IMG/VR virus record: IMGVR_UViG_3300008952_003220
Span: 32,001-96,000 of that record
Reading direction: 5' to 3' (one strand)
DNA from: a virus
DNA length: 64,000 bases
Shown: piece after piece, positions 2,895 through 20,037 of the stretch
How positions within the stretch are numbered: the stretch's first letter is position 1
Layout: each line of letters opens with the position of its first letter
Program-made: the position numbers and the translations under genes
Notes under the pieces: generated by a model
Databases searched by the model: none
Seen by the model: the letters and a program-made list of their open reading frames with translations, nothing else
Told to the model about the DNA's origin: nothing

Positions 2895-3158
2895 ATGAAC
2901 GAATATAGACTTTCTGATGAAGTGATTGCACAGATCGCCAAGATTATCCAGGTTGCAATCTTGACAGGCACAGACGTCGTTGATAATCTTAGAATGATGA
3001 GAGTTACAAACTCAAGTGATGAAGAAAGCGTCCTTACACTTACAGACGGGTACAAAGACATGAGTGAAAGCCAGATAGCTGATTTGCTTGAAAAGGCTTC
3101 TCAAGCCTCTGAAATGACTATGGCAGACGCGCTTGAGATCGAGGGAGATCTAAATTGA
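2895..3158 (+). CDS. hypothetical protein
   Basis: 87-aa ORF with GGGAG RBS. Confidence 0.75.
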   Translation: MNEYRLSDEVIAQIAKIIQVAILTGTDVVDNLRMMRVTNSSDEESVLTLTDGYKDMSESQIADLLEKASQASEMTMADALEIEGDLN

Positions 3159-3532
3159 ATGACGACAGGCTTCGAGTCATGTTTGATCTAAGAGAGAGGT
3201 TTATGCTATCGCTTAAGGAGAAGTTCCCCGACGCTTACCCAGCTTGGCCGCTTGACCTAAGTAAGAAAAGTGATCAACAGCTTTGTAGAGATATGGCACT
3301 AAGAGGAGTTGAAGAGATGTTTGAAGCATTACAGCACCTTAAGAACTGGAAGCCTCATCGACAGACAGAAGTTAGTGAGTTTGATCATGATGCTTTTTTA
3401 GAAGAGGTAGTCGATGCATTTAATTACTTTTTTTCTTTGATCATTTTATCAGGAAGCTCAGCAGATGACCTATATAATTCTTATATAAAGAAGGACTTCA
3501 TTATACATGAGCGCCTCGATAAAGGATACTAG
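3155..3532 (+). CDS. all-alpha dNTP pyrophosphatase (dimeric dUTPase / T4 gp56 dCTPase-like, MazG superfamily)
   Basis: EEMFE...KNWK...EEVVD acidic and WK motifs. Confidence 0.8.
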   Translation: MNDDRLRVMFDLRERFMLSLKEKFPDAYPAWPLDLSKKSDQQLCRDMALRGVEEMFEALQHLKNWKPHRQTEVSEFDHDAFLEEVVDAFNYFFSLIILSGSSADDLYNSYIKKDFIIHERLDKGY

Positions 3533-3830
3533 CTTTGCAAAGATAAAGCTAGAAACATGCCATCAAGACCCTATCTGTTTTTCTTCCCCCAAAGAGCTTA
3601 AAAAAATATTAAGTGAAACTAATGAAAAAATACATACCGGTGTGATAGAATTTACATGTAATGAGGGGTCTAGGCCTCTTGTTGATGAACGTGGATATAC
3701 ACAAATGTCTTCTTTGGTCTTTGATCAGACGCATTCAGATGCTATTATATCCGCTTTTAAAGATGTTTTTCTGAGGGGGAAAAATGAAAACCAATCTATC
3801 GAGCCTGTTTCAGACACAAAAGCAGTTTAA
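3507..3830 (+). CDS. hypothetical protein
   Basis: 107-aa ORF filling the gap, overlapping both neighbours. Confidence 0.5.
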   Translation: MSASIKDTSFAKIKLETCHQDPICFSSPKELKKILSETNEKIHTGVIEFTCNEGSRPLVDERGYTQMSSLVFDQTHSDAIISAFKDVFLRGKNENQSIEPVSDTKAV

Positions 3831-4731
3831 TGATCTATTTTTCAATAGAGATAACTTAAGTCAAATTGAAAAAGAGGAGATTACTAAGTCGCTATCTTTG
3901 GCATTGCACTCTGAGATATCTTCAATGATATCTGGAATTAACTTTAAGGATCATAAGTGCAGCCGAATCGAGATAGACGTCAATAAGATTCTTTACGAGT
4001 CGGTCGATGCATTCAGATATATCATAGCAATTATGAACCTTTGGGGAATATCTCATGATCAATTTACTGATGCATTTGATGATAAGGATCTCTACCTCAA
4101 GACCTGTCACAAGATAGAAAGAAATACCTGGGACGGTCGACCTGTCTTGATAGTCGACATGGATGATGTCATCGTTGGATTTAGAGATGGATTTATTGGA
4201 TGGCTTCGAGATAGATACGCTGTTCATGTGGATCCAGAATGTCCAGAGTACTATACTACCACCGCAGTGAAGGAAAAGGGTCTTAATCCGGAGTCAGTTT
4301 TCTTTAGCTTTATTTCTGAAAGAAAACTTCGAGATCTAGAGCCGATCGGAAACATGATTCAAATTTTAAATAAGCTTCACGATTTAGGATACTGGATTCA
4401 GCTGCTTACAGCTCGACCTGAGGAGAATCTTCTCTGTTGTTATGATACATACAGATGGCTTGAGTCATCTGGCCTAAAGTATGATAGGCTTAACTTTAGC
4501 GGAGAAAAATATCGATGGCTTGCTCAGTCAGAATATTATGATACTGGGTCAATCGTTTGTGCCATTGATGATTCGCCTAAGCACTCTGCAGAGTATGCCA
4601 AGCATGGTATCAACGTTATCTCCCCTTTGACATCTTATAATAGAGAGCTTGAAACTGTTGATAGGGTCAGGTTTTATGCTGATGATTCAGATGTTTTAGA
4701 GATGATAAGGGAATTATCAAAAAACGTGTAG
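3784..4731 (+). CDS. fusion of a MazG/dUTPase-like N-domain and a HAD 5'(3')-deoxyribonucleotidase
   Basis: N-term SEISS...ESVD; C-term DMDDV, LLTAR and IDDSP HAD motifs. Confidence 0.8.
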   Translation: MKTNLSSLFQTQKQFNDLFFNRDNLSQIEKEEITKSLSLALHSEISSMISGINFKDHKCSRIEIDVNKILYESVDAFRYIIAIMNLWGISHDQFTDAFDDKDLYLKTCHKIERNTWDGRPVLIVDMDDVIVGFRDGFIGWLRDRYAVHVDPECPEYYTTTAVKEKGLNPESVFFSFISERKLRDLEPIGNMIQILNKLHDLGYWIQLLTARPEENLLCCYDTYRWLESSGLKYDRLNFSGEKYRWLAQSEYYDTGSIVCAIDDSPKHSAEYAKHGINVISPLTSYNRELETVDRVRFYADDSDVLEMIRELSKNV

Positions 4732-4754
4732 CTTTGGCTTATGTTTGGTATAAT
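4726..4754 (+). promoter_or_regulatory. GTGTAG-N17-TATAAT promoter (class A)
   Basis: Matches a motif seen at 13 intergenic sites. Confidence 0.7.
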
Positions 4755-4795
4755 GTAGTTGTGGAAATTATTTCACTTTTTAGGAGAATATAGTA

Positions 4796-5266: not shown

Positions 5267-5291
5267 ATACATTTTATAAAACCTAATAATT

Positions 5292-5317
5292 GAGCTGGCT
5301 TTGCCAGCTCTTTTTTT
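5292..5317 (+). terminator. intrinsic terminator
   Basis: GAGCTGGC-TTT-GCCAGCTC followed by T7. Confidence 0.85.
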
Positions 5318-5380
5318 ATTTATCTTTAATACAGATTCGATGTCTTTGTTATAATATTTTATTACCACATGAGGAGAAAA

Positions 5381-6355
5381 ATGCCCCAAAATAAAAATCT
5401 AGAACCCGTTAATCTTCCAATGACACTAAGATTTGATGAGGAGCCTACTACAGAGTTTCTTAATGATCTAGATGCCTTAACCATTGAGCTAGTAGATCAT
5501 CCTACAGCTGAGCAGATGAGAGACGTTGCTTGGAGGTACGTGAAGGCAACCTGGGCAGATGACCCAGACTTTACAAATCCATCAGGTGTATCACAGGAGG
5601 ACCTAAGTGAAAATCTTGAGGACGTTCTTTGTTTTCGAGCCTTACCGACCCCGATGGAGATTTTTAGCTTTACATTTAAGTTTGCAGGAATTGATCTCCA
5701 GACAGTGACTCATCTTATTCGTCACCGAGCAGGCTCGTGGGCAGCACAGTGCACAGGGGACAGGTTTCTTCATCACGAGCCCTGTCTCGTTCCAAGCGCT
5801 GTCGAGAACAGTCCAGACCTTTATCGTCGATGGAAGCGTCATGTAGAGGATGCTAAGCAGCTTTACGCAGACATGGTTGATACCCGTCAGATCTCAATGA
5901 TGGATGCAAGAACCATTCTTCCCAAGTGTCTCTCAACATTCTACTACGGTCGCTTCAATCTCAAGGACATCATCGGCTTTGTCAAGCAGCGCTCAGACAA
6001 GCAGATCCAACCTTCAGTTGATAATCTTATTGCTGCTAAGATGGCTGCAGAGATTATCAAGGTTCTTCCTGAGGCAAGTGCTGTAATTGGAACAAGGACA
6101 CTCACAAGCCCGGCATGGCACTATATCAAGAATGTTCGTGCTGGAACCGGAACTAATCTTTACTGGCCAGATGATGACAGTGATGAGCACATTGAATATC
6201 ATCCAAATGATACAATCTATCAGGCTCATCGATATGATCTAAATGGAACAAATCCATCTGATGATGAGGCTGATGGAAACACTAAGTTTAGACAGATGTG
6301 GAACAGTCTAATAGAAGAAATCTCTATACTTGAAGCGATGTACAGGGATTCTTAA
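5381..6355 (+). CDS. ThyX-fold flavin-dependent nucleotide-modifying enzyme (divergent)
   Basis: HLIRHR and DARTILP motifs; RHR-X7-C instead of RHR-X7-S; start moved to the ATG after GAGGAG. Confidence 0.8.
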   Translation: MPQNKNLEPVNLPMTLRFDEEPTTEFLNDLDALTIELVDHPTAEQMRDVAWRYVKATWADDPDFTNPSGVSQEDLSENLEDVLCFRALPTPMEIFSFTFKFAGIDLQTVTHLIRHRAGSWAAQCTGDRFLHHEPCLVPSAVENSPDLYRRWKRHVEDAKQLYADMVDTRQISMMDARTILPKCLSTFYYGRFNLKDIIGFVKQRSDKQIQPSVDNLIAAKMAAEIIKVLPEASAVIGTRTLTSPAWHYIKNVRAGTGTNLYWPDDDSDEHIEYHPNDTIYQAHRYDLNGTNPSDDEADGNTKFRQMWNSLIEEISILEAMYRDS

Positions 6356-7160
6356 ATTGAATCAAGACAACTTCCAGATCGGGAGCTGGCTCCGTGTTAA
6401 GGACGGAAGTGTTCTTACAAAGACGCTTCCCAGTGTCTTAGATTGCTTTTGTGAAAAACATCCCATGACGAGTGGTCCAGTAATAGATAGATTTGAAGAG
6501 GGAGAAGTTAGAAATATTGCCTTGTTTGGTCTTCCGGGATCTGGAACAACAGTCGTCTTACAAGTCGTTAATCACCTTGCTCCTAACAGAGCTGTAAGAT
6601 CTCATGAGTTCAAAGACACATGTCCTATGATTTTTAAGTTTAATAAAATATTTTATACAATTAGAAATCCATTTGATGTTTTTTCTTCTATGGCGAGAAG
6701 ATTTGTAGAAAACGATCCCTTAGTTGACTTTGATCGAGCAATGAAAGACTCACTTAGATTTATGAGATTTAATAAATATATTACCTCTATGAAAGGAATT
6801 ATAGATACACCTGATGTTGAAGTTTGCTTTTTAAGATACGAAGACTATTTTGACAATGAAGCAAAAAGGATAGAGGCCTTATCTAATTTTTTAAATCTTG
6901 ATTTAGACAATAATGAGATCTTAGAGATTGCCAGATTTTTTTCTGTAAACGAAAATATTAAAAGAGTGGAAAAAATATTTGGCAATCTAAATAGCACGGG
7001 TCCCAGACTTAAAGACAAAGAAAGTCAATTAAATTCAAATCACATAGGTCCATCAAGAGGCGCACCGGGTTCAGGGCAGAATCTAAGCAAAGAGATTCGA
7101 TCCATGATTTATGCAAAGCACCGGTGGTACTTTGATACCTTTAACTATGAAAATTTATAA
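6330..7160 (+). CDS. sulfotransferase family protein
   Basis: GLPGSGTT 5'-PSB loop, RNPFD..SS 3'-PB motif, LRYED. Confidence 0.75.
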   Translation: MKRCTGILKLNQDNFQIGSWLRVKDGSVLTKTLPSVLDCFCEKHPMTSGPVIDRFEEGEVRNIALFGLPGSGTTVVLQVVNHLAPNRAVRSHEFKDTCPMIFKFNKIFYTIRNPFDVFSSMARRFVENDPLVDFDRAMKDSLRFMRFNKYITSMKGIIDTPDVEVCFLRYEDYFDNEAKRIEALSNFLNLDLDNNEILEIARFFSVNENIKRVEKIFGNLNSTGPRLKDKESQLNSNHIGPSRGAPGSGQNLSKEIRSMIYAKHRWYFDTFNYENL

Positions 7161-7207
7161 TACACATATCTTAAAGATGATATGATTTTTTGAAAAGGAG
7201 AACTTAG

Positions 7208-7660
7208 ATGTTTAAGAAAAAAATATACCTTGCAGCGGGCTGGTTTAACCCAATTCAAGCTCTAGAGTTAACTCAGCTTGAAGAGGTTTGTGACAATAGA
7301 GACTGGATTGATCTTGCTAGTCCGAGGCGAATTTTTGTTTGTCCGCCAAATGCTCCAAAGCACGTTCAAGATGAAACGTTTGACGGAAACTTGCATCACA
7401 TTGAGACAGCAGATTTTCTTATTGTCAATACACGTGATAAAGATATTGGGACGATCTGGGAAGCAGGATATGCTTTTGCAAACAAGGTTCCGATCGTCTA
7501 TTTTTGCAATGGCCTTCCTGAAGGTGCTAAGTTTAATCTAATGCTTGCGAGAAGCGGTGTCAAGGTTTGCACTTCTTTTGAGCAGCTTGAAGATTATCTG
7601 GATCGATGTTTTGCTGATGGTGATCTTATCTGTGAGCCATACGACCAAGAAATTGAATAA
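7208..7660 (+). CDS. nucleoside 2-deoxyribosyltransferase / dNMP N-glycosidase family
   Basis: IYLAA-WF, D-GT-WE-GY and NLML motifs. Confidence 0.9.
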   Translation: MFKKKIYLAAGWFNPIQALELTQLEEVCDNRDWIDLASPRRIFVCPPNAPKHVQDETFDGNLHHIETADFLIVNTRDKDIGTIWEAGYAFANKVPIVYFCNGLPEGAKFNLMLARSGVKVCTSFEQLEDYLDRCFADGDLICEPYDQEIE

Positions 7661-7690: not shown

Positions 7691-8749
7691 ATGTCTAATG
7701 ATTATTATCATGTTCTAGGGGTCTCAAAAGAGGCGACAGAAAAGGAGATAAAGGCGGCTTATAGAAAGCTAGCTATGAAATATCATCCTGATAAAAATCC
7801 AGACAATCCAAGTGCTGAGTCTAGATTTAAGGAAGTATCTGAAGCATATTCAGTTCTTTCAGATTCAGAAAAAAGATCTAACTATGACAGATTCGGGACA
7901 GCAAGTCCACATCACGGACACGGATTTTCTCATGAAGATATATTTAGCAGATTTTCTGACTTCTTTGGGGGTGATGGGTTTAGTGACTTCTTCGACGGAG
8001 GTCGGAGGCCAGCACATCGAAAGGGGTCAGATCTCCTTATCAGAGTTAGAGTTTCTCTTGATGAAGTCTTGGGTGGTTTAAAGAAAGAGATAAAACTCAA
8101 AAGAAGAGAAAATTGTGAACCCTGCAGCGCACAGGGCTTTAGGTCTGAAAGCGACGTTGCAAGGTGCTCAGATTGTGGTGGCTCCGGAGCTGTAACTCAG
8201 AATATGGGGTTTATGTCTTTTTCCTCAACCTGCGAGAGGTGCAACGGTCGCGGAGTGACAATCAAGAATAGATGCCAGACATGCGGTGGATCTGGAGAGG
8301 TTGTTGAGTCTAGAAGCATAAGCGTCAACATTCCACCCGGTGTGAGTTCAGGCACTAGAATGAAGCTATCTGGGCTAGGCCACCGTGATGCCGGAACAGA
8401 TATTCCAGGTGACGCCTATCTTGAGATTCTTGTTGATTCTCGTCCTGGATTAGAAAGAAAGGGATCAGATGTGCATAGCAAGATTACGATCTCATTTGGT
8501 GAGGCGGCTCTGGGCTGTGAGAAGAAGATAGCGACAGTTGAAGGTGACAGGGTTGTGATAATCAAGCCAGGGCTTCAGCCTGGATCAATGCTGTCTTTAA
8601 GTGGTCAGGGCTTACCTACTGAGATAGGCTCTCCTGTTAGGGGATCTCACATTCTTCACGTTAGTGTTTCTGTACCGTCTCAGCTTGATGCTGAGGAGCA
8701 AGCTCTAATTCAGCGCCTAGAAGAGATTAGAAAGTCTAAAGACGTGTAA
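7691..8749 (+). CDS. dnaJ: chaperone DnaJ
   Basis: J domain with HPD, G/F-rich linker, four CxxCxxxG-type zinc motifs, C-terminal domains. Confidence 0.95.
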
Positions 8750-8797: not shown

Positions 8798-11700
8798 ATG
8801 TCTAAATTTAGTCAATTTTCTGTGCCTAAGCACTTTGCAGGCCTTCACGCTCATGATGGTAGTTCTGTCTATGATGGATTGGGATATCCAGATGAGCACA
8901 TCGATTTTGTGTTGCAAAATGAGATGAATGCCTTTGCTCTGACAAACCACGGCCACATGAATTCAGCTGCTCACGCACACAACTACTCAAAAAAGCTTAA
9001 GAATAAAGGTGTCAATTACAGGCATATCTACGGCTGTGAGTGCTACTTTGTTGACTCACTTGATGAGTGGAGTCAGGACTATCACGAGCACAGAGAGGCA
9101 GTGCGCCTGGAGCGAGAGGCTAAGAAGAAGGTTGCGCTTGTTGACACAGGCGATGAGAATGAGGGCCTTGTCATCGAGAATGAGGCAGAGTCAAAGAATG
9201 AGAGGGGCTCTTATCCTGCATGGAAGCGTCGGTATCACCTTGTCGTGCTGGCAAAGAACTACAAGGGGCTGCAGAATCTCTTTAGATTGGTCAAGAGATC
9301 ATACAAGGAGGGGTTCTATAGGTTTCCTCGTATCGACTATAAGATGCTTAAGGAGCACTCTGAGGGGCTTATTGTCTCAACAGCGTGCGTCGGAGGTAGG
9401 CCCTCAGGTCATATCTACCAGAGCTTCGAGGGTAAGAAGTTTGATGAGTTGACACCTGACCTTGTTGATGACCCAGCAGTTCTCAATTCTATCATGAGAA
9501 AGCTTGAGAACATGACAGATAGATTTGTTGACGCTGTTGGTGAGGAGAATTTTTTCTTAGAGGTACAATTCAACGACCTTGTTGCACAAAATCTTACAAA
9601 TAGGTGTCTAATTGAGCTTTCAAAGAGAACTGGGATTCCACTTCTTGCAACAGCTGACTCTCACTACTGTAATCCAGACATGTGGGAGGCACGTGAGATG
9701 TATAAACTTCTTGGAAGAATGGGGTCTCGTGGAGCTGAGATGCCCAAGATTCCTAAAAAGGAAGATTTAAAGTGTGAGCTCTATCCTAAAAATGCTAAGC
9801 AGATGTGGGATGAATTTGGAAAGAGTTATGGCAAATATGACTTCTACAAGGGAAGTGAAGATGTCGTTCGTGAAGCAATTGAGAGATCTCACGGAATTGC
9901 TTGGGACATGTGCGAAGAGGTCTGGTTTGACGGATCAGCAAAGCTTCCAAACTTCGGAACACCTGAGAAGCCCGCGTTTACGCAGCTTGTTGAACAGGTA
10001 AAGCAAGGGATGATCAAGGAAGAGCTTCATGATAAGCCTGAATACATTGAGCGAATCAGAGAGGAGATGTCTGTTATCAAGCAGCTTGGGTTTGAAAATT
10101 ACTTTTTGACCCTTACCAAGGTCTTTGAGAAGTCGCAGCACAGAACACTTCTAGGCCCCGGTCGTGGCTCCGGTGGCGGTAGCTTGGTCAACTACGTCCT
10201 AGGGATTACACACATTGATCCAATTAAATACGGGCTTCTGTTTGAGAGGTTCCTTGGCATTCACAAGGCAAGCTGGCCTGATATTGATTCTGATGTAGGT
10301 GACAGAGATGTTCTTATTGATGTCTCTAGAGATCTGTTTGGTGACGATGCTGTTATACCTGTTTCTAACTTTAATACCCTTAAGCTTAAGTCTCTTATCA
10401 AGGACATCGGCAAGTTTTATGGTATTCCGTTTGATGAGATCAATGCCCTAACAGGCCCGCTTGAAAGAGAGGTGATGCACCGAGCGATGGGTGATCACGA
10501 GGAGCGGTCAACTTATGTCTTGACCCACGAGGATTGTCTTAAGTATAGTGATGCCTATCTTGAATTTATGTCAAAGTATCCCAAGATTGCTGAGCACGTT
10601 CAGACACTTTTTATGGAGCCTCGGTCTATCGGCAGACATGCTGGCGGAGTCCTAGTTTGCCCTGATATTGAAAGTCACATGCCTGTCATCAAAGTGAGAG
10701 GTGAGCTCCAGACGCCATGGTCAGAGGGCATGAACTGGCGACATCTTGAGGAGAATGGGTTTCTTAAGTTTGACTTTCTCGGTCTGGCAACGCTGAAGAT
10801 GGTCGAGGATTCAATCCGTCTAATTTTAAGAAACCAGGGTGTTGAGAATCCTACCTTCGATCAGATCAATGAGTTCTTTGACGCTCATCTAAATAGTAGA
10901 TTTAATGCTATGGACGACCAGAAGGTGTGGAAGTATGTCTATCACGGTGGCAGGTTTGTTCAAATCTTTCAGTTTACCAACACCGGTGCTAGAAAGTTCT
11001 GCGTGGCAGCCAAACCTACATCTATTGAGGACCTTGCTACAATCACAGCAATCTATCGACCTGGCCCGCTGGCTGCAAATGTCCATAGGAAATACGTCAA
11101 GGCAGGCCTAAATCTAGATGAGATCACATACGACCACCCAGTTCTTGAAGAGCTGCTTAGCGAAAGTCGTGGGTTCGTTGTCTTTCAGGAGCAGTTCATG
11201 CTCATCGCTCAGAAGCTCTGTGGTTTTGACAAGGGTGCATCTGACAAGATGAGAAAGACGCTAGTCAAGAAGTCACTTGACATGAATGCTAAGAAGGCGC
11301 AGGAAAGGACAGATCTTAGGAAGAAGTTTATTACCGGTGCAGTTGAGCTATCTGACATGGATGAGAACAAGGCAGTTAAGCTTTATGAGACCATTGAGGC
11401 TTTCTCTGCCTACGGCTTCAACAAGTCACACGCTGTCGCCTATGCTGTTGACTCATACTACTCTGCCTGGTTGCACACTTACTATGAGAAGGAGTGGCTG
11501 GCAACGTGCCTGCAAACTTGGAATGGATCCAATAAGTTCGGCAAACTGATAAGTGAGATTAAGACTCTAGGATATAAGATCCTAAAGCCTGACATCAATT
11601 ACTCCTCAGATGTCTGGGTCTACAGTGAGGAGCGTGAAGGATTTGTTCCACCCTTGACAGCTATCAAGGGTGTTGGAAGCTCCGCAGTTGAGGAGATTAT

Positions 11701-12385
11701 GAGAAATCGCCCTTTTGCTAATTTTGATCAGATGCTCTTCACAGAGGATGGCAAGTGGAAGCCCTCTAAGATGAATAAGACCTGTTTTGACTCTCTTTGC
11801 AAGGTCGAGGCTTTTGGCTCTTTAGATGAGGTCTCTGGTGGTGCTGTAAGGAATCATCATCAAATCTATGAGATCATCGTTGGAAATTATGACCTGCTTA
11901 AGAAAGGTCGCCACGGTATGACAAAAACAGCGGCAAAGAAGCTAATGAAGTCGCAGGGCTTTGTTCCTAACTTTATCGAGGAAAAAATCATAGAAAACTA
12001 CGACCTTGAGGATTGGCCGCGTGCTGTTAAGATTGGCAACAGTGTTGACCTAATGGCAGGGGCAGACGAGGAGCTGGTCTTTCCGCCGCGGATCATGAAG
12101 AAGATAGAAAAGGCTCAGGTGCCTGCAATCACAGCACTGAGCGGCAAAGACAAGGGAATAGTCTGGTTCTGCATTCAGGAGATCCAGGAGAAGAAGACAA
12201 AGAACGGTAAGGTCTTCTATCGGATGCGAGTCTGTGATAATAACTCAGAAAGTGTCTGGCTACGTGTCTGGACCAAGTTTAAAAAGACCCCTGAGCCATA
12301 CACCATGTGGCTGTCTGAGGTGGCCTCTACTGAAAACTGGGGTTGCTCTACATCTTCCTACAAGATGAAGCAGTTAAGTGTATAA
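8798..12385 (+). CDS. dnaE: DNA polymerase III alpha subunit (DnaE type)
   Basis: PHP domain (HAH, TNHG, ADSHY), GRGSGGGS, FERFL, PDIDSD, KFDFLGL, YGFNKSH, HhH and OB fold. Confidence 0.97.
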   Translation: MSKFSQFSVPKHFAGLHAHDGSSVYDGLGYPDEHIDFVLQNEMNAFALTNHGHMNSAAHAHNYSKKLKNKGVNYRHIYGCECYFVDSLDEWSQDYHEHREAVRLEREAKKKVALVDTGDENEGLVIENEAESKNERGSYPAWKRRYHLVVLAKNYKGLQNLFRLVKRSYKEGFYRFPRIDYKMLKEHSEGLIVSTACVGGRPSGHIYQSFEGKKFDELTPDLVDDPAVLNSIMRKLENMTDRFVDAVGEENFFLEVQFNDLVAQNLTNRCLIELSKRTGIPLLATADSHYCNPDMWEAREMYKLLGRMGSRGAEMPKIPKKEDLKCELYPKNAKQMWDEFGKSYGKYDFYKGSEDVVREAIERSHGIAWDMCEEVWFDGSAKLPNFGTPEKPAFTQLVEQVKQGMIKEELHDKPEYIERIREEMSVIKQLGFENYFLTLTKVFEKSQHRTLLGPGRGSGGGSLVNYVLGITHIDPIKYGLLFERFLGIHKASWPDIDSDVGDRDVLIDVSRDLFGDDAVIPVSNFNTLKLKSLIKDIGKFYGIPFDEINALTGPLEREVMHRAMGDHEERSTYVLTHEDCLKYSDAYLEFMSKYPKIAEHVQTLFMEPRSIGRHAGGVLVCPDIESHMPVIKVRGELQTPWSEGMNWRHLEENGFLKFDFLGLATLKMVEDSIRLILRNQGVENPTFDQINEFFDAHLNSRFNAMDDQKVWKYVYHGGRFVQIFQFTNTGARKFCVAAKPTSIEDLATITAIYRPGPLAANVHRKYVKAGLNLDEITYDHPVLEELLSESRGFVVFQEQFMLIAQKLCGFDKGASDKMRKTLVKKSLDMNAKKAQERTDLRKKFITGAVELSDMDENKAVKLYETIEAFSAYGFNKSHAVAYAVDSYYSAWLHTYYEKEWLATCLQTWNGSNKFGKLISEIKTLGYKILKPDINYSSDVWVYSEEREGFVPPLTAIKGVGSSAVEEIMRNRPFANFDQMLFTEDGKWKPSKMNKTCFDSLCKVEAFGSLDEVSGGAVRNHHQIYEIIVGNYDLLKKGRHGMTKTAAKKLMKSQGFVPNFIEEKIIENYDLEDWPRAVKIGNSVDLMAGADEELVFPPRIMKKIEKAQVPAITALSGKDKGIVWFCIQEIQEKKTKNGKVFYRMRVCDNNSESVWLRVWTKFKKTPEPYTMWLSEVASTENWGCSTSSYKMKQLSV

Positions 12386-12396: not shown

Positions 12397-12416
12397 TTAT
12401 CTGAGTGTGCTACAGC

Positions 12417-14513
12417 ATGAAGATAACAAGAAGACATTTAAGAAGAATCATAAGAGAAGAGCTTCTTAGTGAGCAGTTTGCACAAGGCCTTGGGCACGAA
12501 CCTGGTGCAGAGCAGTATGCTTCTGATCCTGATCCCGAGACAGAAGCAGGGTGGATAGATAAGTGTTGTCACACATGGACACAGATAGATCCCCCGCCGG
12601 GTAAGATGGCACCATACTATGTTGATGCTTGTGGTAACCCAAGAGGTGAGCCCTACGTTGTGGGAGGAGAGCGCAAGTATTCATGCACATGGTCACGGGG
12701 TCCTGATGTTGACCTGGTCGATCGAATTGTAGACTTTGCTGCAGAAGAGGTCTTTCCAGATTTTATGGAAATTGCCATCGCAACACCGAAGTGGTTGTTG
12801 GACACCACAGTAGACATGGTTGTTGAAACAAGCAAGGATCTGCTAATCGTAGGAACAGTCATGACTACAAAGGGTGCTGTTCTTAAGACTGGAGTCATTA
12901 CACCAGAACAGTATGTGCAATCTCTTCTTAATCTTGCAGTCTTTGTCTTGCTGTGGTATGGCGGTCCAGTTGCATTCAGGGCTGCTGGCAATGTCCTTTT
13001 TTCTGCTCCGTCGACTGCTACAAACAGAATGGCTGGCGAGGCGGTAGAGAATTTAGTGTGGGCGAGAGCAAATACTTATTCTGATGACGTAGTAAGAGGG
13101 TCGTCAGATGCAGTGAAGTATACTGCTAAGACTATGGACGATGCGATTACTGCCTCTAGAAGCCCAGCTGCAGCCAGCCCGTCACAAAGAACAACGGCAT
13201 CACCTGATAAACCTGCAGCTTCTGTAGAGAGCCAGGCAGTAGATGAAATAATCCAGTCTCAGAAAGCAGCAGCAAGACAGGAGGCGAAATCTGAGCTTGC
13301 GAGAAGGAGCCAGGAAGCTCGAGCTGAATTAGGGACGGACGTCCCGCAACCTGTCGGAGAACCGGTTCCCCTGATTCTTAGAAGGCCCAGCTCGACGCAG
13401 CGGTCTGGGTGGGAAGACACTGTTAGAGTTGCTATGGGCGCATCTAAAAATCTTCCTGATATTGCATATACAACCTTTGCAAAAAAGCTTCTAGTTCGCA
13501 TAGCCCAAGGCTTGGAACGATCGTCCGCCGATGACATCATGGTCATATATCCAGATAACATCCCGACCAGGCCTCCCTGGCTCAGCAGCGAGCCGCCCCC
13601 ACTCAACCAGGTGTCGATCAGGCAGTTCACACTTAGTGATGTGATATCTTCTTGGGAGAGAATTCCCGGAAACCCTGCTGGAAAAGGGTTTAAGGATTTT
13701 GAGCCTGAATTGATTGCATTTAACATTAGGAATGTGCTGGCAAGAGAAGAGGCAGAGCAGCTGGCAGCACAGATGTTTGATCAGTTTCCAGTTATGTCAA
13801 GTGTATACGGGAAGCCATCTCGTTTTATTGATGAATTTTATAATAATTTTGCTATCAGAGTGGGACGCACTTCAATCAACAGACTTGGAGCTCAGTACCC
13901 AAATCATATCGAAATAACACCCTTTAGAAGTGGAAATGCTCTTTTAGATAAGTGGGTAGGAGGTAGACCGGGATCTAGGCCCCCTCCGCTACTCGGTGGG
14001 ACAAGACAGTTTATAGCCAATACCCTAGACGATAATTCTCGTGTCTATACACATGAGCTTGATCACTGGTTTAGAACAAAAGTAATCGAAAAGACAGGCG
14101 CAGACCCGAGCCGACAATACAGGGATGTCTACGACGCAGAAGGGATGGTCATCCGCGAGAACTGGCTAAAAAAATGGTGGGAGTTTGAGGCTGAGTTCAC
14201 AACAGTTCAGTTCAGGCTTTTAGACCAGATTGGATCAAAAGGTGCCACACCTGATGTCGTTAGAATACTCGAGAACCCAGTTGAATTTGAGAAATATTTT
14301 CTTGCAAATCTCAAAGGCATCACTGTAGATTGGGAAGAGCCTATCTATAATCAATTGATGCAGCGGATAAGGGGAAGGCTGTTTGATACTGAGAGAGGTC
14401 TTTACTGGGCTCTTAGAAGGGCTCTTGAAATTCCAGACCCACCAAGGAAGCCTCTTCCAGAAAATATCCAGATAAATTTGAGAAGATGGTCGACGTTAGC
14501 AGGCATAATTTAG
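12417..14513 (+). CDS. tagged putative virion protein with TM segment and C-terminal HExxH metallopeptidase-like domain
   Basis: Starts MKITRRHLRRIIREELLSEQ; hydrophobic LAVFVLLWYGG; THELDH followed by EFEAE. Confidence 0.65.
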   Translation: MKITRRHLRRIIREELLSEQFAQGLGHEPGAEQYASDPDPETEAGWIDKCCHTWTQIDPPPGKMAPYYVDACGNPRGEPYVVGGERKYSCTWSRGPDVDLVDRIVDFAAEEVFPDFMEIAIATPKWLLDTTVDMVVETSKDLLIVGTVMTTKGAVLKTGVITPEQYVQSLLNLAVFVLLWYGGPVAFRAAGNVLFSAPSTATNRMAGEAVENLVWARANTYSDDVVRGSSDAVKYTAKTMDDAITASRSPAAASPSQRTTASPDKPAASVESQAVDEIIQSQKAAARQEAKSELARRSQEARAELGTDVPQPVGEPVPLILRRPSSTQRSGWEDTVRVAMGASKNLPDIAYTTFAKKLLVRIAQGLERSSADDIMVIYPDNIPTRPPWLSSEPPPLNQVSIRQFTLSDVISSWERIPGNPAGKGFKDFEPELIAFNIRNVLAREEAEQLAAQMFDQFPVMSSVYGKPSRFIDEFYNNFAIRVGRTSINRLGAQYPNHIEITPFRSGNALLDKWVGGRPGSRPPPLLGGTRQFIANTLDDNSRVYTHELDHWFRTKVIEKTGADPSRQYRDVYDAEGMVIRENWLKKWWEFEAEFTTVQFRLLDQIGSKGATPDVVRILENPVEFEKYFLANLKGITVDWEEPIYNQLMQRIRGRLFDTERGLYWALRRALEIPDPPRKPLPENIQINLRRWSTLAGII

Positions 14514-14549: not shown

Positions 14550-15455
14550 ATGCTTAGATTTCCTACCGCTACGTTGTTCATTGAAGGCCCAGATTGTTCT
14601 GGTAAAACAAGTCTCATCAATCAGATTCACGCTGAGACAAAGTACTCGTGGCACATAATGGATCGGTCTCAGTTCTCTAGGAAGCTTTTCTGCGATCTTT
14701 ACAATAGAGTTGTACCTACAGCTAGCGATGATCTTTACTTTGAGATGGGAAATCTTAATAATCGATATGTCTTTTTGCTTCCACCGCTTGATGCGATCTT
14801 AAGTAGATTTGAAGACAGGGGTGATGAGTTACATGATAAAAAGTCTCTGATCCAGGTCTACAAGACATTTGGAAAGCATGTTGAGAGAATTAGGACTTTT
14901 CCAAACGTTACTGTGATATACGATGAGCCTTCGGTTAAAGATCTCTCGAAAAGGGTGTGTACATCGCTGCACTTCACTGAGAAGCCGCAGCTAAGAGAGG
15001 TATCAGATCAGGTCATTGATCTTGTAGCTGTTAGAGGCGATGAGTCATATCCTGTAAAGTTTACCCTATACGATGATGGCAAGTTTGAAGAAGCAGACCC
15101 AGAAATTTTAAATTATAAGCCTGAGTCAGAATATTATCAGAGAATATTTTCTGAGCTGCACAATAAGATCACTGATGAGCTAGCTGGAAAGAATGAGTAT
15201 GACAGAGTTGAGGATCACACCTCAAGAAGGTTTGTCTACTCTGATAGCACCTGTATCTCTTTTATTCAGGTGGGAATTAGAGATAGAATTATGGACTTTC
15301 ACGTTGTGATCCGTTCTACAGATGTTAAAGAGATTTTTCCCTATGATTTAAAGTTTTTGTACTATCTTGCTTCAACGTGTTTTAATAGGTTTAATGACGT
15401 GTGCAATGGTGTTAGATTGAGATTTGACTTAAACTCTGCGCACATTATAAGATAA
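14550..15455 (+). CDS. fusion of a P-loop dNMP kinase and a minimal thymidylate-synthase-fold domain
   Basis: EGPDCSGKT and MDRS (kinase); SRR, CISFIQ, RSTD...PYD and SAHI (ThyA fold). Confidence 0.8.
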   Translation: MLRFPTATLFIEGPDCSGKTSLINQIHAETKYSWHIMDRSQFSRKLFCDLYNRVVPTASDDLYFEMGNLNNRYVFLLPPLDAILSRFEDRGDELHDKKSLIQVYKTFGKHVERIRTFPNVTVIYDEPSVKDLSKRVCTSLHFTEKPQLREVSDQVIDLVAVRGDESYPVKFTLYDDGKFEEADPEILNYKPESEYYQRIFSELHNKITDELAGKNEYDRVEDHTSRRFVYSDSTCISFIQVGIRDRIMDFHVVIRSTDVKEIFPYDLKFLYYLASTCFNRFNDVCNGVRLRFDLNSAHIIR

Positions 15456-15477
15456 AATTACATAAAGGAGCGCTATT

Positions 15478-16494
15478 ATGAAAAAGAAAGCATTGGTGAC
15501 AGGCGGCTGCGGATTTATTGGATCAAATCTATCAAAGAGTCTTGTAGAAGATGGGTGGACTGTTGATATAGTCGATGACATGTCATCAGGAGATCTAAAC
15601 CTTCTCTCAGGGACCAGCATGCGCGTTGTTCCTATTGATCTATTGAGAAACTATTTTGAATCCCCGGCAGCAGAAAAGAGAGAGACTGACCAGCTTTTAG
15701 TCATCCAGGGTGATTTCTCTCACCAAAATACGCTGACGCTAATCAGGGAGGGCAGATATGACGTTGTCTTTCACCAAGCAGCTATTCCAAGAGTTTCATT
15801 TTCTGTTGAGAATCCATCAGCTACGACAGATGTCAACGTAGCTTCTACAGTTAGATTGTTTGAAGCCTGCATAGACAATGTCAAGAGGATTGTTTGGGCA
15901 TCTTCCTCTTCTGTTTACGGTGGAGCTGATGTCATGCCAACGCCGACTACTGCACCAAGAAATCCCAAGTCACCATATGCTTGGCAAAAATCTACCATAG
16001 AAGATCTATCTAAGATGTTTTGTAATCTTTATGATATCGATATCGTCTGTCTGCGCTATTTTAATGTCTTTGGTCCGGGACAGCTAGCTGGAAGCCCCTA
16101 TTCCACAGCAGTTTCTGCTTGGTGTCACGCAATTAAGAATGATCTTCCCCTAAGAAGCGATGGAGACGGAACACAAAGCCGTGATCTGTGCTACGTTGAT
16201 AATGTTGTCAGTGCTAACATTCTTGCTGCTATTTCTGATACTGTTTTTTCCGGAAAGGCATACAATGTTTGTTGTGGAGATAGAACAAGCAATCGTGAGA
16301 TTCTGAACTTTTTAACTGAGAGATTTCCTGGTATAGATATAGAGGATGCCCCTTGGCGAACAGGAGATGTCATGCACACACAAGGTGATTGGTCTGCAGC
16401 AAACATTGATTTTGGATATGAACCTTTGGTAAAGTTTTGGCAAGGGATAGAGAGAACATTAGAGTGGTGGGAATTAAAAGAAGATGAGTTATGA
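15478..16494 (+). CDS. NAD-dependent nucleotide-sugar epimerase/dehydratase
   Basis: TGGCGFIG, SSSSVYG, YAWQK (YxxxK), LRYFNVFGP. Confidence 0.93.
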   Translation: MKKKALVTGGCGFIGSNLSKSLVEDGWTVDIVDDMSSGDLNLLSGTSMRVVPIDLLRNYFESPAAEKRETDQLLVIQGDFSHQNTLTLIREGRYDVVFHQAAIPRVSFSVENPSATTDVNVASTVRLFEACIDNVKRIVWASSSSVYGGADVMPTPTTAPRNPKSPYAWQKSTIEDLSKMFCNLYDIDIVCLRYFNVFGPGQLAGSPYSTAVSAWCHAIKNDLPLRSDGDGTQSRDLCYVDNVVSANILAAISDTVFSGKAYNVCCGDRTSNREILNFLTERFPGIDIEDAPWRTGDVMHTQGDWSAANIDFGYEPLVKFWQGIERTLEWWELKEDEL

Positions 16495-16912
16495 TACTAA
16501 AAAACATGTTAAGTCTTCATGGGTTTCAAGTGGAAACAATGGTCGGATTACTGAGAAACCCTGGGGATATGAGACATCTTGGGCTGGATTCGATGGAATT
16601 CATGGAAAGACTCTTTTTATATGTGAGGGAAAGAGAACCAGCCTAAAGTATCACACATTAAAATCAGAGGTGCTTTTTGTTAGATCTGGTCGTGCTGAGG
16701 TTGAATTCGGAGATGAGCTTTCTTTAACAGACCCAGTGGGACATCCTTTTAAAAAGGAAACTGTAACGCCAGGAAGCTGCTTACTAGCTCAAAGCGGATC
16801 ACCCTATAGAATAAAAGCTTTAACAGATTGTGAGATAATAGAAATAGGAAATCACCTTAGTGACAAACCTATTAGAATAGAGGATGACTATGGCAGAGCT
16901 AACTCAGAATAA
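16484..16912 (+). CDS. cupin (mannose-6-phosphate isomerase type II C-terminal-like)
   Basis: KPWG, TSLKYH..KSE and RIEDDYGR. Confidence 0.8.
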   Translation: MSYDTKKHVKSSWVSSGNNGRITEKPWGYETSWAGFDGIHGKTLFICEGKRTSLKYHTLKSEVLFVRSGRAEVEFGDELSLTDPVGHPFKKETVTPGSCLLAQSGSPYRIKALTDCEIIEIGNHLSDKPIRIEDDYGRANSE

Positions 16913-17471
16913 AAGGCAACCTGAATTTATTATATTTACGGGTCCGATGTTCGGGTCTAAGACAACTAAACTGCTGGCAGTTGTAGATAGATTTAGATAT
17001 CAGAAAAGAAAGGTCTTTGCATTTAAGCCCAAGATGGACGACAGGTATTCAAATACTGAGATAGTTACCCACTCTGGGGGAAAGATCGAAGCTGTCGGCA
17101 TCAGCACGGGAAATGAGGTTATATCGTTTTTACAGGATCTAGATGAGATGCCAGATGTGATTGCTGTGGACGAAGCTTTTATGATAGATGACATTTCTGA
17201 AGTTTTAGTCTATCTATTCAGGGGCGGAATTACTATCGTTGTTTCTTCATTGCAGCTGTCAGCAACAGGAAAGCCTTTTGAGGAGGTTAGGGATATGATG
17301 CCGTATGCTACAAAGATTGAAATCTGCCCAGCAGTTTGTACAATTTCAGGAGATGATGCATACTATACACATCGAAAGCTTGAAACTATTGATGAAATTA
17401 TTGTTGGGGGCGAAGAGCTATATGAGCCTAGATGTTGGAAGTATCACAGTTTCTTTAATATAGAGGGATAA
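16884..17471 (+). CDS. tdk: thymidine kinase
   Basis: GPMFGSKTT, VDEA, VGGEELYEPRC. Confidence 0.93.
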   Translation: MTMAELTQNKRQPEFIIFTGPMFGSKTTKLLAVVDRFRYQKRKVFAFKPKMDDRYSNTEIVTHSGGKIEAVGISTGNEVISFLQDLDEMPDVIAVDEAFMIDDISEVLVYLFRGGITIVVSSLQLSATGKPFEEVRDMMPYATKIEICPAVCTISGDDAYYTHRKLETIDEIIVGGEELYEPRCWKYHSFFNIEG

Positions 17472-17472
17472 T

Positions 17473-18510
17473 ATGACTCATGTTAAGCCAGGTAATGTTG
17501 ACTGTGTAATATACCACGCTGATTGTACAGACGGTTTTGGTGCTGCATATTCTGCTTGGAAGCTATTGGGAAATCGTTCTGAATATTACCCCTGTAAGCA
17601 TGGAACAGCTCCGCCAGATATTAAAGGAAAGACAGTTGCTATTCTTGATTTTTCTTTTGATAATGCAACTATTAAAAAGATGATTAAAGATGCTGAAGGG
17701 CTTATAGTGATTGATCATCATAAATCTGCAATGGTCGAGCTTCATGATATATCTAACACTCACTTTGATATGACCAAGAGCGGTGCAATGCTAGCATGGG
17801 AATTCTTCCACCCCGGAAAAGAATCACCAAAGTTTATTCAATATATTCAAGATAGAGATCTCTGGAAATGGGAGCTTCCATATTCTAAAGAATTTGCTGC
17901 AGCTTTTGATATGGTTCCTTTTGAGTTTGAAGAATTTGAGAAGTTCGAGGATGACTCTGTGTTTGATGATGCCATTAAGAGAGGATCGTATATACTGGCC
18001 TATAGTAAGACAGTTGTGAAGAAGGTTTGTGAAAAGGCAGTTTCTAGAAAGTACAAAGGAATGGATGTTTTAATTGTTAATTCATCACACTGGATGTCTG
18101 AGATTGGTGCACGACTATCACCTGATTGTGACTTTGCTGTAATTTGGTACTATGATCATAATGATAGAATCAATAAGATAAGTCTTAGATCTTTTCATGA
18201 TCATGTTGATGTTTCTGAGATTGCTAAGGATTTTGGAGGCGGCGGCCATAGAAAAGCTGGAGGCTTTCAAATAAGTGGAGAGCTTTGTGTCGATGATATA
18301 TTTGACATTGAAGAAGAGCAAGAAGAAGACGTAGTTGACACTTCTCAGGTTAAGGAAGAGATTAAAAAGCTAAAAGAGGAGTTACAGGAGAAAGGCGGTG
18401 ACGTCAAGGAAGAAGAATTTGAAAAGCTCGAAGAGCAGATAGAAAAGATTGCTAGTGGTAAATCTCTAGAAAGTGAAAATCACGATAGCCAGCAAGCAGA
18501 AGATAGATGA
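17473..18510 (+). CDS. DHH/DHHA1 phosphoesterase
   Basis: YHADCTDG, DHH and GGGGH; acidic tail. Confidence 0.9.
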   Translation: MTHVKPGNVDCVIYHADCTDGFGAAYSAWKLLGNRSEYYPCKHGTAPPDIKGKTVAILDFSFDNATIKKMIKDAEGLIVIDHHKSAMVELHDISNTHFDMTKSGAMLAWEFFHPGKESPKFIQYIQDRDLWKWELPYSKEFAAAFDMVPFEFEEFEKFEDDSVFDDAIKRGSYILAYSKTVVKKVCEKAVSRKYKGMDVLIVNSSHWMSEIGARLSPDCDFAVIWYYDHNDRINKISLRSFHDHVDVSEIAKDFGGGGHRKAGGFQISGELCVDDIFDIEEEQEEDVVDTSQVKEEIKKLKEELQEKGGDVKEEEFEKLEEQIEKIASGKSLESENHDSQQAEDR

Positions 18511-18538
18511 GACCAGAATGGGATGATCACATAATAAA

Positions 18539-19630
18539 ATGAATGATGATAAATTAAAAGATATTTTAAGAATAGCAAGAGACTATGGGTTTTGTATTGT
18601 TCCTGATGACAATGAAGTTCTTGCTATTAATCATCACACTGTTGGAGGCAGTTTTAGCCAGAAACTAGGCTATCTTGAAATAGATCCAGTTTCATTTTTT
18701 TCATCATTACAAGTATTGGGCACTGTATCATCTTGTCTCGAAAAAAAGAAAGAAGTATTTATTCATTCTCTACCTAGATCAGGAGGAAACCACCTACATG
18801 CCACACTTCATTATCATCCTGAAGTTTTTTGTCTTTCTGAAAGAGAAGATCCCAGAAACAATAGTGCACAAGATGTCTTTGGAAAATTTAGTCCTATAAC
18901 ATTCTATAAGATGATTAGCTCAAAATGTCTTGTCTGGAAAGTTACTGGTGTCAGAGATCCATCTTTGATTATTTACTTTGACAAAGTGTGTAAAGATCAT
19001 GTTTCTATTTTTAATTTTAGGCACCCTTACTTGGTATTTTTATCAGCTAAGCGGGAAGAACTAAAGGGAAATAGCTCATATCACTGGCTCAAAGAAAGCT
19101 GGCCTAATCGTCCCAATTTGCTAAGCATAGTTTGTGATTATTTTAAAAATATAAAACAGTCACATTTAATCAATCCTGATCGAAAAATAACCTATCAAGA
19201 GATATGTGCTGCGCAGGCACTACAGCTAAGTCACATATCTTATGCAATAAATAGAGGAATTACTTCTACTATAGCATTTCATGAAGAATTGCTAGCTAAT
19301 AAAGATAAAATGGAATCAATTTATAATACTCTAGGGCTAGCTTGTGACTCTCAGGTTTATTCTTTTAAAGCATTTATTAGTGATATGCAGGAGAAGAATA
19401 GTGATGACTATGATATCTCTGATGGACTTATAGGATTTGGAGGCTACAATCCCGAACGTAAGATTTTGCTTAAAGATGAGATTAACATTTTAAATGAGAA
19501 TCGGCATGATGCGGAAATGATGATTGATCTTGTTTGTGAATTTTCAAAAAAAAATAATGTTGATGAAGAGGTTATTTTTAAATTTAGAGAATTTTATCTG
19601 GAAAAGATTAATAACTTGGAACAAAGATGA
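18539..19630 (+). CDS. sulfotransferase-like protein
   Basis: SLPRSGGN loop and FRHPY...S motif. Confidence 0.6.
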   Translation: MNDDKLKDILRIARDYGFCIVPDDNEVLAINHHTVGGSFSQKLGYLEIDPVSFFSSLQVLGTVSSCLEKKKEVFIHSLPRSGGNHLHATLHYHPEVFCLSEREDPRNNSAQDVFGKFSPITFYKMISSKCLVWKVTGVRDPSLIIYFDKVCKDHVSIFNFRHPYLVFLSAKREELKGNSSYHWLKESWPNRPNLLSIVCDYFKNIKQSHLINPDRKITYQEICAAQALQLSHISYAINRGITSTIAFHEELLANKDKMESIYNTLGLACDSQVYSFKAFISDMQEKNSDDYDISDGLIGFGGYNPERKILLKDEINILNENRHDAEMMIDLVCEFSKKNNVDEEVIFKFREFYLEKINNLEQR

Positions 19631-20037
19631 GACTACATCGACCTAGCTGGGATAAAATTTGGATGCAATTTGCTCAGTCAATATCAACAAGATCCTGTGA
19701 TCCGCGTCATCAGGTTGGGGCAATCATAGTGACAGATGATAATACTCAAGTCCTGGCTATCGGATACAATGGAGATCAAAAAGGAGGATCTAATGCAATA
19801 GAGTCATTGGAGCCCGGTCAGTCAGGCTTTATTCATGCTGAAATTAACGCTCTAATAAAGTGTGACTACAACAACCCTAAGAGAAAGATTATGTATGTAA
19901 CACTTTCACCCTGTAAGATGTGTGCAAAGTCAATTGTAAATTCTGGTATTAGTGAGGTTATCTACTTTGAAGATTACAGATCTGATGAGGGAGTTCGACT
20001 TTTATCTGAATTGGGGATTCTTGTTAGAAAATTCTAA
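19627..20037 (+). CDS. dCMP deaminase
   Basis: RPSWD, GYNG, HAEINA and SPCKMC. Confidence 0.92.
   Translation: MRLHRPSWDKIWMQFAQSISTRSCDPRHQVGAIIVTDDNTQVLAIGYNGDQKGGSNAIESLEPGQSGFIHAEINALIKCDYNNPKRKIMYVTLSPCKMCAKSIVNSGISEVIYFEDYRSDEGVRLLSELGILVRKF

Follow-up and report, generated by a model that had tools for sequence, protein, structure and literature searches.

Pre-replicative modification of pyrimidines through thymidylate synthase (TS)-family enzymes is the means by which the T-even and many other phages escape from restriction and CRISPR. In phage T4 it involves the dCTPase/dUTPase gp56, the deoxycytidine monophosphate (dCMP) hydroxymethylase gp42 and the deoxynucleoside monophosphate (dNMP) kinase gp1, i.e. 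a pyrophosphatase, a cytosine-type TS-fold enzyme and a kinase in this order. The flavin- and O2-dependent 5-hydroxy-dCMP synthases (HY126 AfhB, RB69 gp48, DLP3 gp80 and RL38J1 gp216) belong to the TS superfamily, RB69 gp48 being a proven one, and the CMP hydroxymethylase MilA, which is 318 residues long and folate-dependent, works with MilB in mildiomycin biosynthesis, where it takes a ribonucleotide substrate for the antibiotic and has neither a kinase fusion nor a link to a DNA polymerase. To our knowledge, all modifying TS-family enzymes described keep a full folate or flavin site. Here we describe a related locus in a 64,000-nucleotide window of viral DNA (bases 32001-96000 of the 134,713-bp contig IMGVR_UViG_3300008952_003220, record G000), in which the gene at 14550-15455 encodes a kinase fused to a TS-like core, the mini-TS, far smaller than any characterised TS-family enzyme that we know of.

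An initial annotation of the window had proposed a pyrimidine-modification pathway wrapped around the DnaE polymerase, following the logic of T4 and possibly ending in a sugar-decorated base. Much of this stands: a conserved module beside the replicative polymerase holds a nucleoside triphosphate (NTP) pyrophosphatase, a kinase and an enzyme of TS fold that has the cytosine-type Asp, together with a dCMP deaminase as in T4, and the same T4-like set is rebuilt with separate genes in other lineages. Both TS-type enzymes also deviate as had been claimed, the mini-TS being devoid of the cofactor-side segments and tail and the ThyX-like protein carrying invariant motifs that differ from the canonical ones; the sugar decoration is the part that did not hold. 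Unlike in T4, the kinase is YorR-type and fused, the polymerase is DnaE and not family B, and the parts with which gp42 binds methylene-tetrahydrofolate are missing in the mini-TS. On balance we give about even chances to a T4-like route, centred on the fusion and set in an otherwise ordinary deoxynucleoside triphosphate (dNTP) supply module, that yields a C5-altered cytosine nucleotide before replication; the fusion-bearing module suggests that the phage DNA may carry an altered cytosine.

The 301-aa fusion protein is divided into a kinase (residues 1-147) and the TS-like core (residues 148-301, 154 residues). Pfam yields just a faint P-loop for it, and both phmmer and profile searches of the PDB returned kinases only and no TS, so that the TS kinship had to be sought by fold comparison. 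The AlphaFold2 model, based on 33 homologues, has two domains with a predicted local distance difference test score (pLDDT) of 94.6 and a predicted template modelling score (pTM) of 0.90. Structural alignment of residues 7-148 with VIA-align gave the SPbeta kinase YorR (3kb2; Z 14.2, root-mean-square deviation (rmsd) 2.7, 139 aligned), with deoxyadenosine kinase at Z 13.7 and dTMP kinase at Z 13.1, scores too close together to separate a nucleoside from a nucleoside monophosphate substrate. This domain contains GPDCSGKT (Walker A), DRS and RGDE (lid Arg motif), and matches the profiles of YorR 2axp (2.2e-7) and phrog_761, thymidylate kinase (5.2e-8). For residues 147-301 the best VIA-align match is MilA (5b6e; Z 11.8, rmsd 2.7, 137 aligned), accompanied by the dCMP hydroxylase AfhB of phage HY126 (9iqu; Z 11.1, rmsd 3.0, 145 aligned). 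Foldseek ranks two AfhB entries on top, 9iqu (2.6e-6) and 9iqc, then thymidylate synthases and T4 dCMP hydroxymethylase, with 128 matches at E <= 0.001, among them ThyA, the dihydrofolate reductase-TS fusion (DHFR-TS) and the T4 dCMP hydroxymethylase structures 1b5d and 6a9a.

Concerning the residues that define the active site, the TS landmarks of the fusion are Ser225-Arg226-Arg227, Cys235, Arg255-Ser256, Asp266 and His298, and an hhalign comparison of the family with RB69 gp48 brings SRR, Cys, RS, Asp and SAH into register (E 1e-4, probability 57.6). In E. coli ThyA the catalytic Cys is C146, with Arg166/Ser167 following at a distance of twenty residues. Judged by its modelled fold, the catalytic Cys and the SRR/RS motifs, the C-terminal domain belongs to the ThyA superfamily. 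Cys235, Arg226, Arg255, Ser256 and Asp266 are invariant in 32 sequences at 25-69% identity, Cys235, Arg255-Ser256 and SRR225-227 are invariant or nearly so in alignments of 33 and 32 sequences, and the invariant Cys/Arg/Ser/Asp set is retained in stand-alone forms of the mini-TS. In the RB69 gp48 register, Asp266 (Arg255+11) corresponds to ThyA position 177 (Asn177) and Asp232 (Cys235-3) to position 143; an Asp three residues before Cys235 is found in 117 of 213 motif-matched sequences. According to PMC13326640, N177D is linked with dCMP as substrate and an acidic position 143 with products other than methyl, and a YorR/Tmk-like kinase adjoins the 5-hydroxy-dCMP synthase in DLP3, RB69 and RL38J1 (Table 1 there). 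The mini-TS and the 5-hydroxy-dCMP synthases share the TS-fold core, the catalytic Cys, SRR, RS, Asp177 and the acidic 143, and the kinase that is an adjacent gene in those phages is fused here.

The mini-TS is also predicted to form a homodimer, with an ipSAE of 0.57 versus 0.08 for the best of 3 controls, the mark applied being one that 20 of 30 solved pairs reach, as against 1 of 23 single chains. Runs agree in 100% of contacts, the partner pLDDT is >= 89, and Arg226/227 touch the partner's Arg255/Ser256, in keeping with the obligate homodimers of the ThyA superfamily, where each active site receives the Arg pair of the opposite subunit. Because TS dimers are solved structures, this pass may reflect likeness only.

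The family is widespread. A word-index search retrieved 267 homologues among 578 candidates, nearly all of ~301 aa and without a Pfam domain, and a profile of the C-terminal domain, run against 1.84 billion representatives, matched 416 clusters at 50% identity (E <= 0.001). The best 150 of these 416 matches are mostly ~300-aa fusions, with some complete stand-alone proteins of 160-220 aa. In IMG/VR, 125 contigs carry a relative, and the 50,697 phage records deposited yielded matches in no more than two Pelagibacter phages, weak ones that cover the kinase part alone. A literature search, with subscription journals outside its scope, found no description of a kinase + mini-TS fusion. As a lead only, the ESM Atlas holds a 437-aa viral Thymidylate_kin + Thymidylat_synt cluster (score 0.78).

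All ten enzymes named in the initial annotation are open reading frames (ORFs) on the + strand, agreeing in position exactly or within 12 nt, and each has tool support; two sulfotransferase-like genes, DnaJ and a 702-aa orphan had been overlooked. The genes of the locus are listed below, each count being the number of occurrences within 10 kb in 79 related viral loci picked by the fusion gene.

3155..3532, + strand: all-alpha (MazG / dimeric-dUTPase-like) NTP pyrophosphatase, 125 aa; PF08761 22.1 bits (cut-off 22.9), phrog_12184 2.7e-17, phrog_173 2.4e-8; 28/79 loci.
3784..4731, + strand: NTP-pyrophosphatase-like (dUTPase_2-like) N-domain fused to an NT5C/HAD 5'(3')-deoxyribonucleotidase, 315 aa; PF06941 NT5C 6.9e-9, PF08761 6.5e-5; 25/79 loci.
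5369..6355, + strand: divergent ThyX-family flavoprotein, 328 aa; Thy1 3.8e-17; 38/79 loci.
6330..7160, + strand: 3'-phosphoadenosine 5'-phosphosulfate (PAPS)-type sulfotransferase, 276 aa; Sulfotransfer_1 7.2e-11, SULT structure 5x2b 1.5e-4; 0/79 loci.
7208..7660, + strand: nucleoside 2-deoxyribosyltransferase (NDT)-fold enzyme, 150 aa; PF05014 1.8e-11, phrog_7995 5e-27, PDB 6evs 1.9e-5; 46/79 loci.
7691..8749, + strand: DnaJ co-chaperone, 352 aa; DnaJ, DnaJ_CXXCXGXG and DnaJ_C domains; 12/79 loci.
8798..12385, + strand: DnaE-type replicative DNA polymerase, 1195 aa; PHP, DNA_pol3_alpha, finger and HHH_6 domains; 79/79 loci.
12405..14513: 702-aa orphan between dnaE and the fusion; no family match; 0/79 loci.
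14550..15455, + strand: YorR-type P-loop kinase + minimal cytosine-type TS core, 301 aa, the key gene; AlphaFold2 model and fold matches; 79/79 loci by selection.
15478..16494, + strand: WbgU/WbpP/TviC-type NDP-hexose 4-epimerase, NAD-dependent, 338 aa; PF01370 5.9e-45, PDB 6dnt 1.4e-43, WbgU 3.7e-41; 54/79 loci.
16484..16912, + strand: small cupin, phosphomannose-isomerase type (weak), 142 aa; Cupin_2 E 0.0031, TIGR01479 E 0.0014; 23/79 loci.
16884..17471, + strand: thymidine kinase, 195 aa; PF00265 2.3e-33; 66/79 loci.
17473..18510, + strand: DHH/DHHA1 phosphoesterase (NrnA/RecJ-like), 345 aa; DHHA1 4.7e-6, DHH 4.9e-5, NF053633 1.5e-4; 47/79 loci.
18539..19630, + strand: weak sulfotransferase-like protein, 363 aa; Sulfotransfer_3 5.7e-4, under the cut-off; 0/79 loci.
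19627..20037, + strand: dCMP deaminase, 136 aa; PF00383 4e-23; 66/79 loci.

The clustering around dnaE is borne out, one gene order, identical throughout, recurring in the 79 contigs, and hence it is not due to chance. Many of the gene misses are flank truncations; when four records without a ThyX-like gene in the flank were checked, three carried the gene slightly further off and the fourth was a record 14% complete. The co-occurrence across relatives, which had been put forward as a check, was also followed in the opposite direction with loci from a DnaE profile scan, a scan with the single DnaE protein having given 12 loci, nearly all already known. Where at least 1500 nt were available downstream, the fusion follows DnaE within 6 kb in 63 of 69 DnaE-picked loci, the six others being L148, L151, L152, L153, L162 and L184.

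Synteny within one clade could be plain inheritance, and for this reason the lineages with a stand-alone mini-TS were examined. In L189 a ThyX-like gene, a 332-aa protein, NT5C and a Thymidylate_kin-type kinase of 155 aa, whose gene and the start of the mini-TS gene overlap, are followed by a family B polymerase (PolB). L190, from a complete 81-kb genome with terminal repeats (G007), has dCMP deaminase, a 317-aa protein, mini-TS, NT5C/HAD, dUTPase_2 and DnaE; next to its mini-TS, no gene of a kinase family was found. L192 carries a dUMP-type ThyA of 214 aa, a protein of 298 aa, mini-TS, HAD, a kinase of 157 aa and DnaE. An NT5C/HAD gene and a polymerase (PolB in L189, DnaE in the other two) are thus common to all three, and L189 and L192 have a separate kinase near the mini-TS. 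The strongest argument for a working unit that feeds replication is that the same functional set recurs in different gene orders and with a polymerase of a different family. Moreover, a separate thymidylate synthase adjoins the mini-TS in L189 (ThyX-like) and L192 (ThyA), which argues that the mini-TS does something other than dTMP synthesis. In L192, the short ThyA (4324-4968) has Asn at position 177 and lies two genes upstream of the cytosine-type mini-TS, so that the two TS-fold genes would not be redundant.

Taken as a pathway, the all-alpha NTP pyrophosphatases would convert deoxycytidine triphosphate (dCTP) to dCMP, which the mini-TS would bind with Asp266 reading the cytosine face and the phosphate held by Arg226/Arg227 of the partner subunit together with Arg255/Ser256. 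Attack of Cys235 on C6 would then activate C5 for some substituent. The loss of the folate/flavin wall from the mini-TS implies that the C5 donor must bind differently or come in trans. The product would be phosphorylated by the fused YorR-type kinase, or this kinase may instead make dCMP from deoxycytidine, and host NDP kinase and phage DnaE would take the product into DNA. The sulfotransferases, the 702-aa orphan and a signal-peptide protein would be strain-specific insertions outside the pathway. Most of the module is ordinary deoxynucleotide supply, with dCMP deaminase, the ThyX-family enzyme and thymidine kinase for dTTP, and the NT5C/HAD, deoxyribosyltransferase-fold and DHH enzymes are salvage and pool control.

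A number of observations weigh against this T4-like route. PF00303 (Thymidylat_synt) matches neither the fusion protein (E <= 0.01) nor anything in the whole 134.7-kb record (E <= 0.1), and no TS of canonical length or layout occurs among the best 150 of the 416 mini-TS profile matches. The mini-TS has 77 residues ahead of SRR versus 136 in RB69 gp48 (~59 fewer), a SRR-to-Cys loop of 7 residues versus 23 (16 shorter), and stops 3 residues past His298, with no C-terminal tail; its 154 residues compare with 217-238 in the 5-hydroxy-dCMP synthases. The cofactor-side segments, which include the stretch between helix B and SRR and form the wall against which known enzymes hold folate or flavin, are missing, and no flavin site is identifiable; with the known cofactor site gone, the mini-TS could be a binding or exchange domain and not a transferase. 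ThyA position 169 is Asp258 in the fusion and not the diagnostic Asn of the 5-hydroxy-dCMP synthases, for which D169N is the mark in PMC13326640. The position is mixed within the family (D 127, N 73, E 9, H 3 and L 1 among the 213 motif-matched of 267 sequences), so this mark does not transfer to the mini-TS. GGCC is mildly depleted in the whole record (180 observed versus 234 expected, z -4.4), which would be unexpected if every C were shielded, a weak argument. No match to Glycos_transf_1 (PF00534), Glycos_transf_2 (PF00535) or Glyco_trans_1_4 (PF13692) was found in record G000, ~45% complete, which leaves the possible sugar decoration unsupported; finally, every other gene of the module has an ordinary dTTP-supply or salvage reading.

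Several of these points would follow directly if the locus were an ordinary dNTP module of a phage with canonical DNA, the fusion being a dNMP or deoxynucleoside kinase whose TS-derived domain no longer performs any transfer and is only dCMP-binding, regulatory or oligomerising, an explanation that we regard as the main rival but as less likely. The neighbours (dCMP deaminase, ThyX family, thymidine kinase, NT5C, DHH and NTP pyrophosphatase) are what AT-rich phages recycling the nucleotides of their host normally carry, and it would account for a mini-TS without known cofactor wall, C-terminal tail or Pfam TS match, for the unconstrained position 169 and for the mild GGCC avoidance. Yet a pure binding domain would need no invariant nucleophilic Cys235 together with Arg226, Arg255, Ser256 and Asp266, and the stand-alone genes, which in L189 and L192 but not in L190 are accompanied by a separate kinase, show the mini-TS to be an independent unit. 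The altered base might alternatively be a thymine analogue, if the 5-substituted dCMP made by the fusion were deaminated by dCMP deaminase to 5-substituted dUMP. The deaminase is present in 66 of the 79 loci and lies upstream of the mini-TS of L190 with one gene between, and further upstream the record also codes for an HhH-GPD glycosylase; nevertheless dTMP supply in the clade looks normal, to judge from its ThyX-family enzyme and thymidine kinase, and the analogue is improbable. Least probable, in our judgement, is that the TS-fold and deoxyribosyltransferase-fold enzymes act like MilA/MilB and yield a modified base or nucleoside in free form (as a small molecule, or in a route that sanitises the pool) and no DNA precursor. 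It would agree with MilA, which shares the cytosine-type Asp, being the best VIA-align match, and with the NDT-fold gene of the phage module, found in 46 of the 79 loci, MilB presumably having the same NDT fold. The fused kinase and the constant adjacency to a replicative polymerase, in DnaE and PolB lineages alike, nevertheless fit a DNA precursor better, and no NDT-fold match was found among the neighbours of stand-alone mini-TS genes that were scanned, which were some of them.

If the T4-like route holds and the fusion is active, a group of ocean jumbo phages that is both large and of ecological importance would have non-canonical DNA that standard metagenomics reads as C, which would bear on viral abundance estimates, host-defence biology and enzyme discovery; the mechanistic question would then be how a TS core works without a cofactor wall. 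New here are the DnaE-first census, the split-gene lineages including PolB, and the FAD-fold neighbour described next.

Proteins of 298-332 aa occur upstream of the mini-TS in all three split-gene loci (L189:3752-4750, L190:4920-5873 and L192:4965-5861); in L189 they stand two genes ahead of it, in the other two loci immediately ahead. They are mutually homologous (E 1e-10 to 1e-31), have an N-terminal GxGxxG dinucleotide-binding motif, and gave no match in Pfam or in PDB sequences. The modelled fold (pLDDT 81.7) is best matched by UDP-galactopyranose mutases (Z 19.6, ~300 aligned), with protoporphyrinogen and amine oxidases (Z 17) next in rank. This FAD (flavin adenine dinucleotide)-fold neighbour may be the missing cofactor partner of the stand-alone mini-TS, a lead and not a finding; the lack of a Glycos_transf_1/2 match in the complete G007 mildly favours a flavin role in base chemistry over a sugar mutase. 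A profile of the protein found no homologue in the records of the clade studied here, in a search without positive control, and a reverse scan for the partner returned only two contigs, both already known. In this clade's module the rebuilt ThyX is the only flavoprotein candidate. An extended scheme can thus be drawn, which we regard as unlikely at present: hundreds of marine and freshwater phages would replace cytosine with an undescribed C5-substituted cytosine, with the mini-TS, as the smallest known TS core, doing only the Cys-C6 activation of dCMP, a separate flavoprotein delivering the substituent (the rebuilt ThyX here, the UDP-galactopyranose-mutase-like FAD protein in split lineages), and the fused or adjacent kinase committing the product to the precursor pool.

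The ThyX-like protein is encoded by ORF 5369-6355, the start at 5381 in the initial annotation lying 12 nt inside it. Canonical ThyX is characterised by the motif RHR(x7)S.RY and an R.D.HAQ.E box. The phage protein reaches 63.1 bits with Pfam Thy1 (cut-off 24.8) and 37.6 bits with NCBIfam TIGR02170, versus a cut-off of 87.9, and matches the T. maritima ThyX profile at 7.5e-6; both the full canonical motif and the equivalog score are thus missed. RHR is invariant, and RHRAGS.AAQCTGDR and QR.D.QIQP occur in all 38 clade sequences, where T. maritima ThyX has RHRIASYNELSGRY and R.D.HAQ.E. Compared with T. maritima TM0449, RHR, the first motif Ser and the Arg of the R.D box are kept, whereas the second motif Ser is replaced by Cys followed by a one-residue insertion (CTGDR), HAQ.E by QIQP..DN, and the FEH box lacks its His; the protein is longer by 40 residues at its N terminus and by ~90 at its C terminus. 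The best single PDB match is a T. maritima chain with Cys at that Ser position. From its sequence the protein appears to be a true but divergent ThyX family member, and a role as dTMP synthase (dUMP methylase) is the simplest reading, although it may perform another chemistry, since no ThyA (PF00303) match exists in the whole record and dCMP deaminase makes dUMP.

Regarding the other enzymes, the product of 3155-3532 is a candidate dCTPase/dUTPase giving dCMP or dUMP, and that of 3784-4731 also weakly matches mitochondrial deoxyribonucleotidase structures. In the alignment of the 7208-7660 product with PDB 6evs, WEAG faces WELG, its Glu falling where we take NDTs to carry the catalytic Glu. 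The DHH/DHHA1 protein likely degrades oligonucleotides for salvage. In L041, L047 and L063, where the ORFs are shorter, the DnaE match does not begin before query residue 485 or 590, and DnaE may be split or interrupted in these relatives. The 702-aa orphan (12405-14513) is richer in GC than its surroundings and contains a HELDH (HExxH-type) motif. Downstream of the module, a 230-aa protein (window 20364-21056), which has only the C-terminal domain of Fe/Mn superoxide dismutase, is kept in 56 of the 79 loci.

As to sugar and sulfate genes, the T4 beta-glucosyltransferase family PF09198 had no match in any genome, its control included, so the answer of that search for T4-type alpha/beta-glucosyltransferases is empty. 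In contrast to the 5-hydroxy-dCMP synthase phages, there are no arabinose or other glycosylation genes beside the fusion. In the relatives G002, G004 and G005, multi-gene clusters of glycosyltransferases lie ~100 kb from the module; G003 (87% complete) has no match to PF00534, PF00535, PF13692 or PF09198, and G007 (100% complete, split-gene lineage) has none to PF00534 or PF00535, the two families searched there. The epimerase gene after the fusion (15478-16494) is of the ordinary UDP-hexose or UDP-HexNAc 4-epimerase type, and its NF011728 match (5.7e-43) is under that model's cut-off. A sulfated or glycosylated base was considered and rejected: both sulfotransferases, like the 702-aa orphan and the signal-peptide protein, are absent from all 79 loci, a distant homologue (27% identity) of the 18539-19630 protein occurring in 1 of 80 DnaE-picked loci, and the phage has a third sulfotransferase (Sulfotransfer_2, 4e-5; window 50803-51537) and two sugar-type methyltransferases elsewhere (FkbM type and Methyltransf_24, at 46064-46861 and 46922-47605). 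Owing to this absence and to the further tailoring genes, the sulfotransferases are read as accessory glycan genes, and the three sulfotransferases and two methyltransferases together suggest a phage glycan-tailoring set.

The source is an uncultured marine jumbo (giant) phage. The record is classed as linear in IMG/VR, and as CheckV puts the contig at ~45% complete, the full genome is probably near 300 kb. Marine metagenome assemblies hold near-identical sequence: all 20 matching rows are assembled contigs of marine or seawater metagenomes, and two of them hold at least half of the words, one possibly being the source. A megablast of GenBank for a close cultured or deposited phage gave no match, and the best DnaE match to a deposited phage has 31% identity. 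Outside the stretch the record encodes gp32, RecA, DnaB, a 5'-3' exonuclease, class II ribonucleotide reductase, ClpP and a T4-type baseplate protein, as well as the HhH-GPD base-excision glycosylase mentioned above, a stand-alone protein of 150 aa (1.3e-7; G000:C1:24793-25245, L082:9793-10245) upstream of the window that could repair deaminated cytosine derivatives. In palindrome statistics GGCC, CATG and GATC are depleted (z -3.5 to -4.4), mild effects that we treat as weak, and TCGA and TTAA are commoner than expected. A GroEL-type chaperonin (Cpn60_TCP1, 5.8e-67) at window 33730-35331 accompanies the full DnaJ at 7691-8749. Finally, the pair formed at window 44083-45737 by a PP-loop ATPase (2.1e-30) and, after it, an enzyme of the GMP reductase/IMPDH family (3.1e-104) places purine-pool genes apart from the pyrimidine module.

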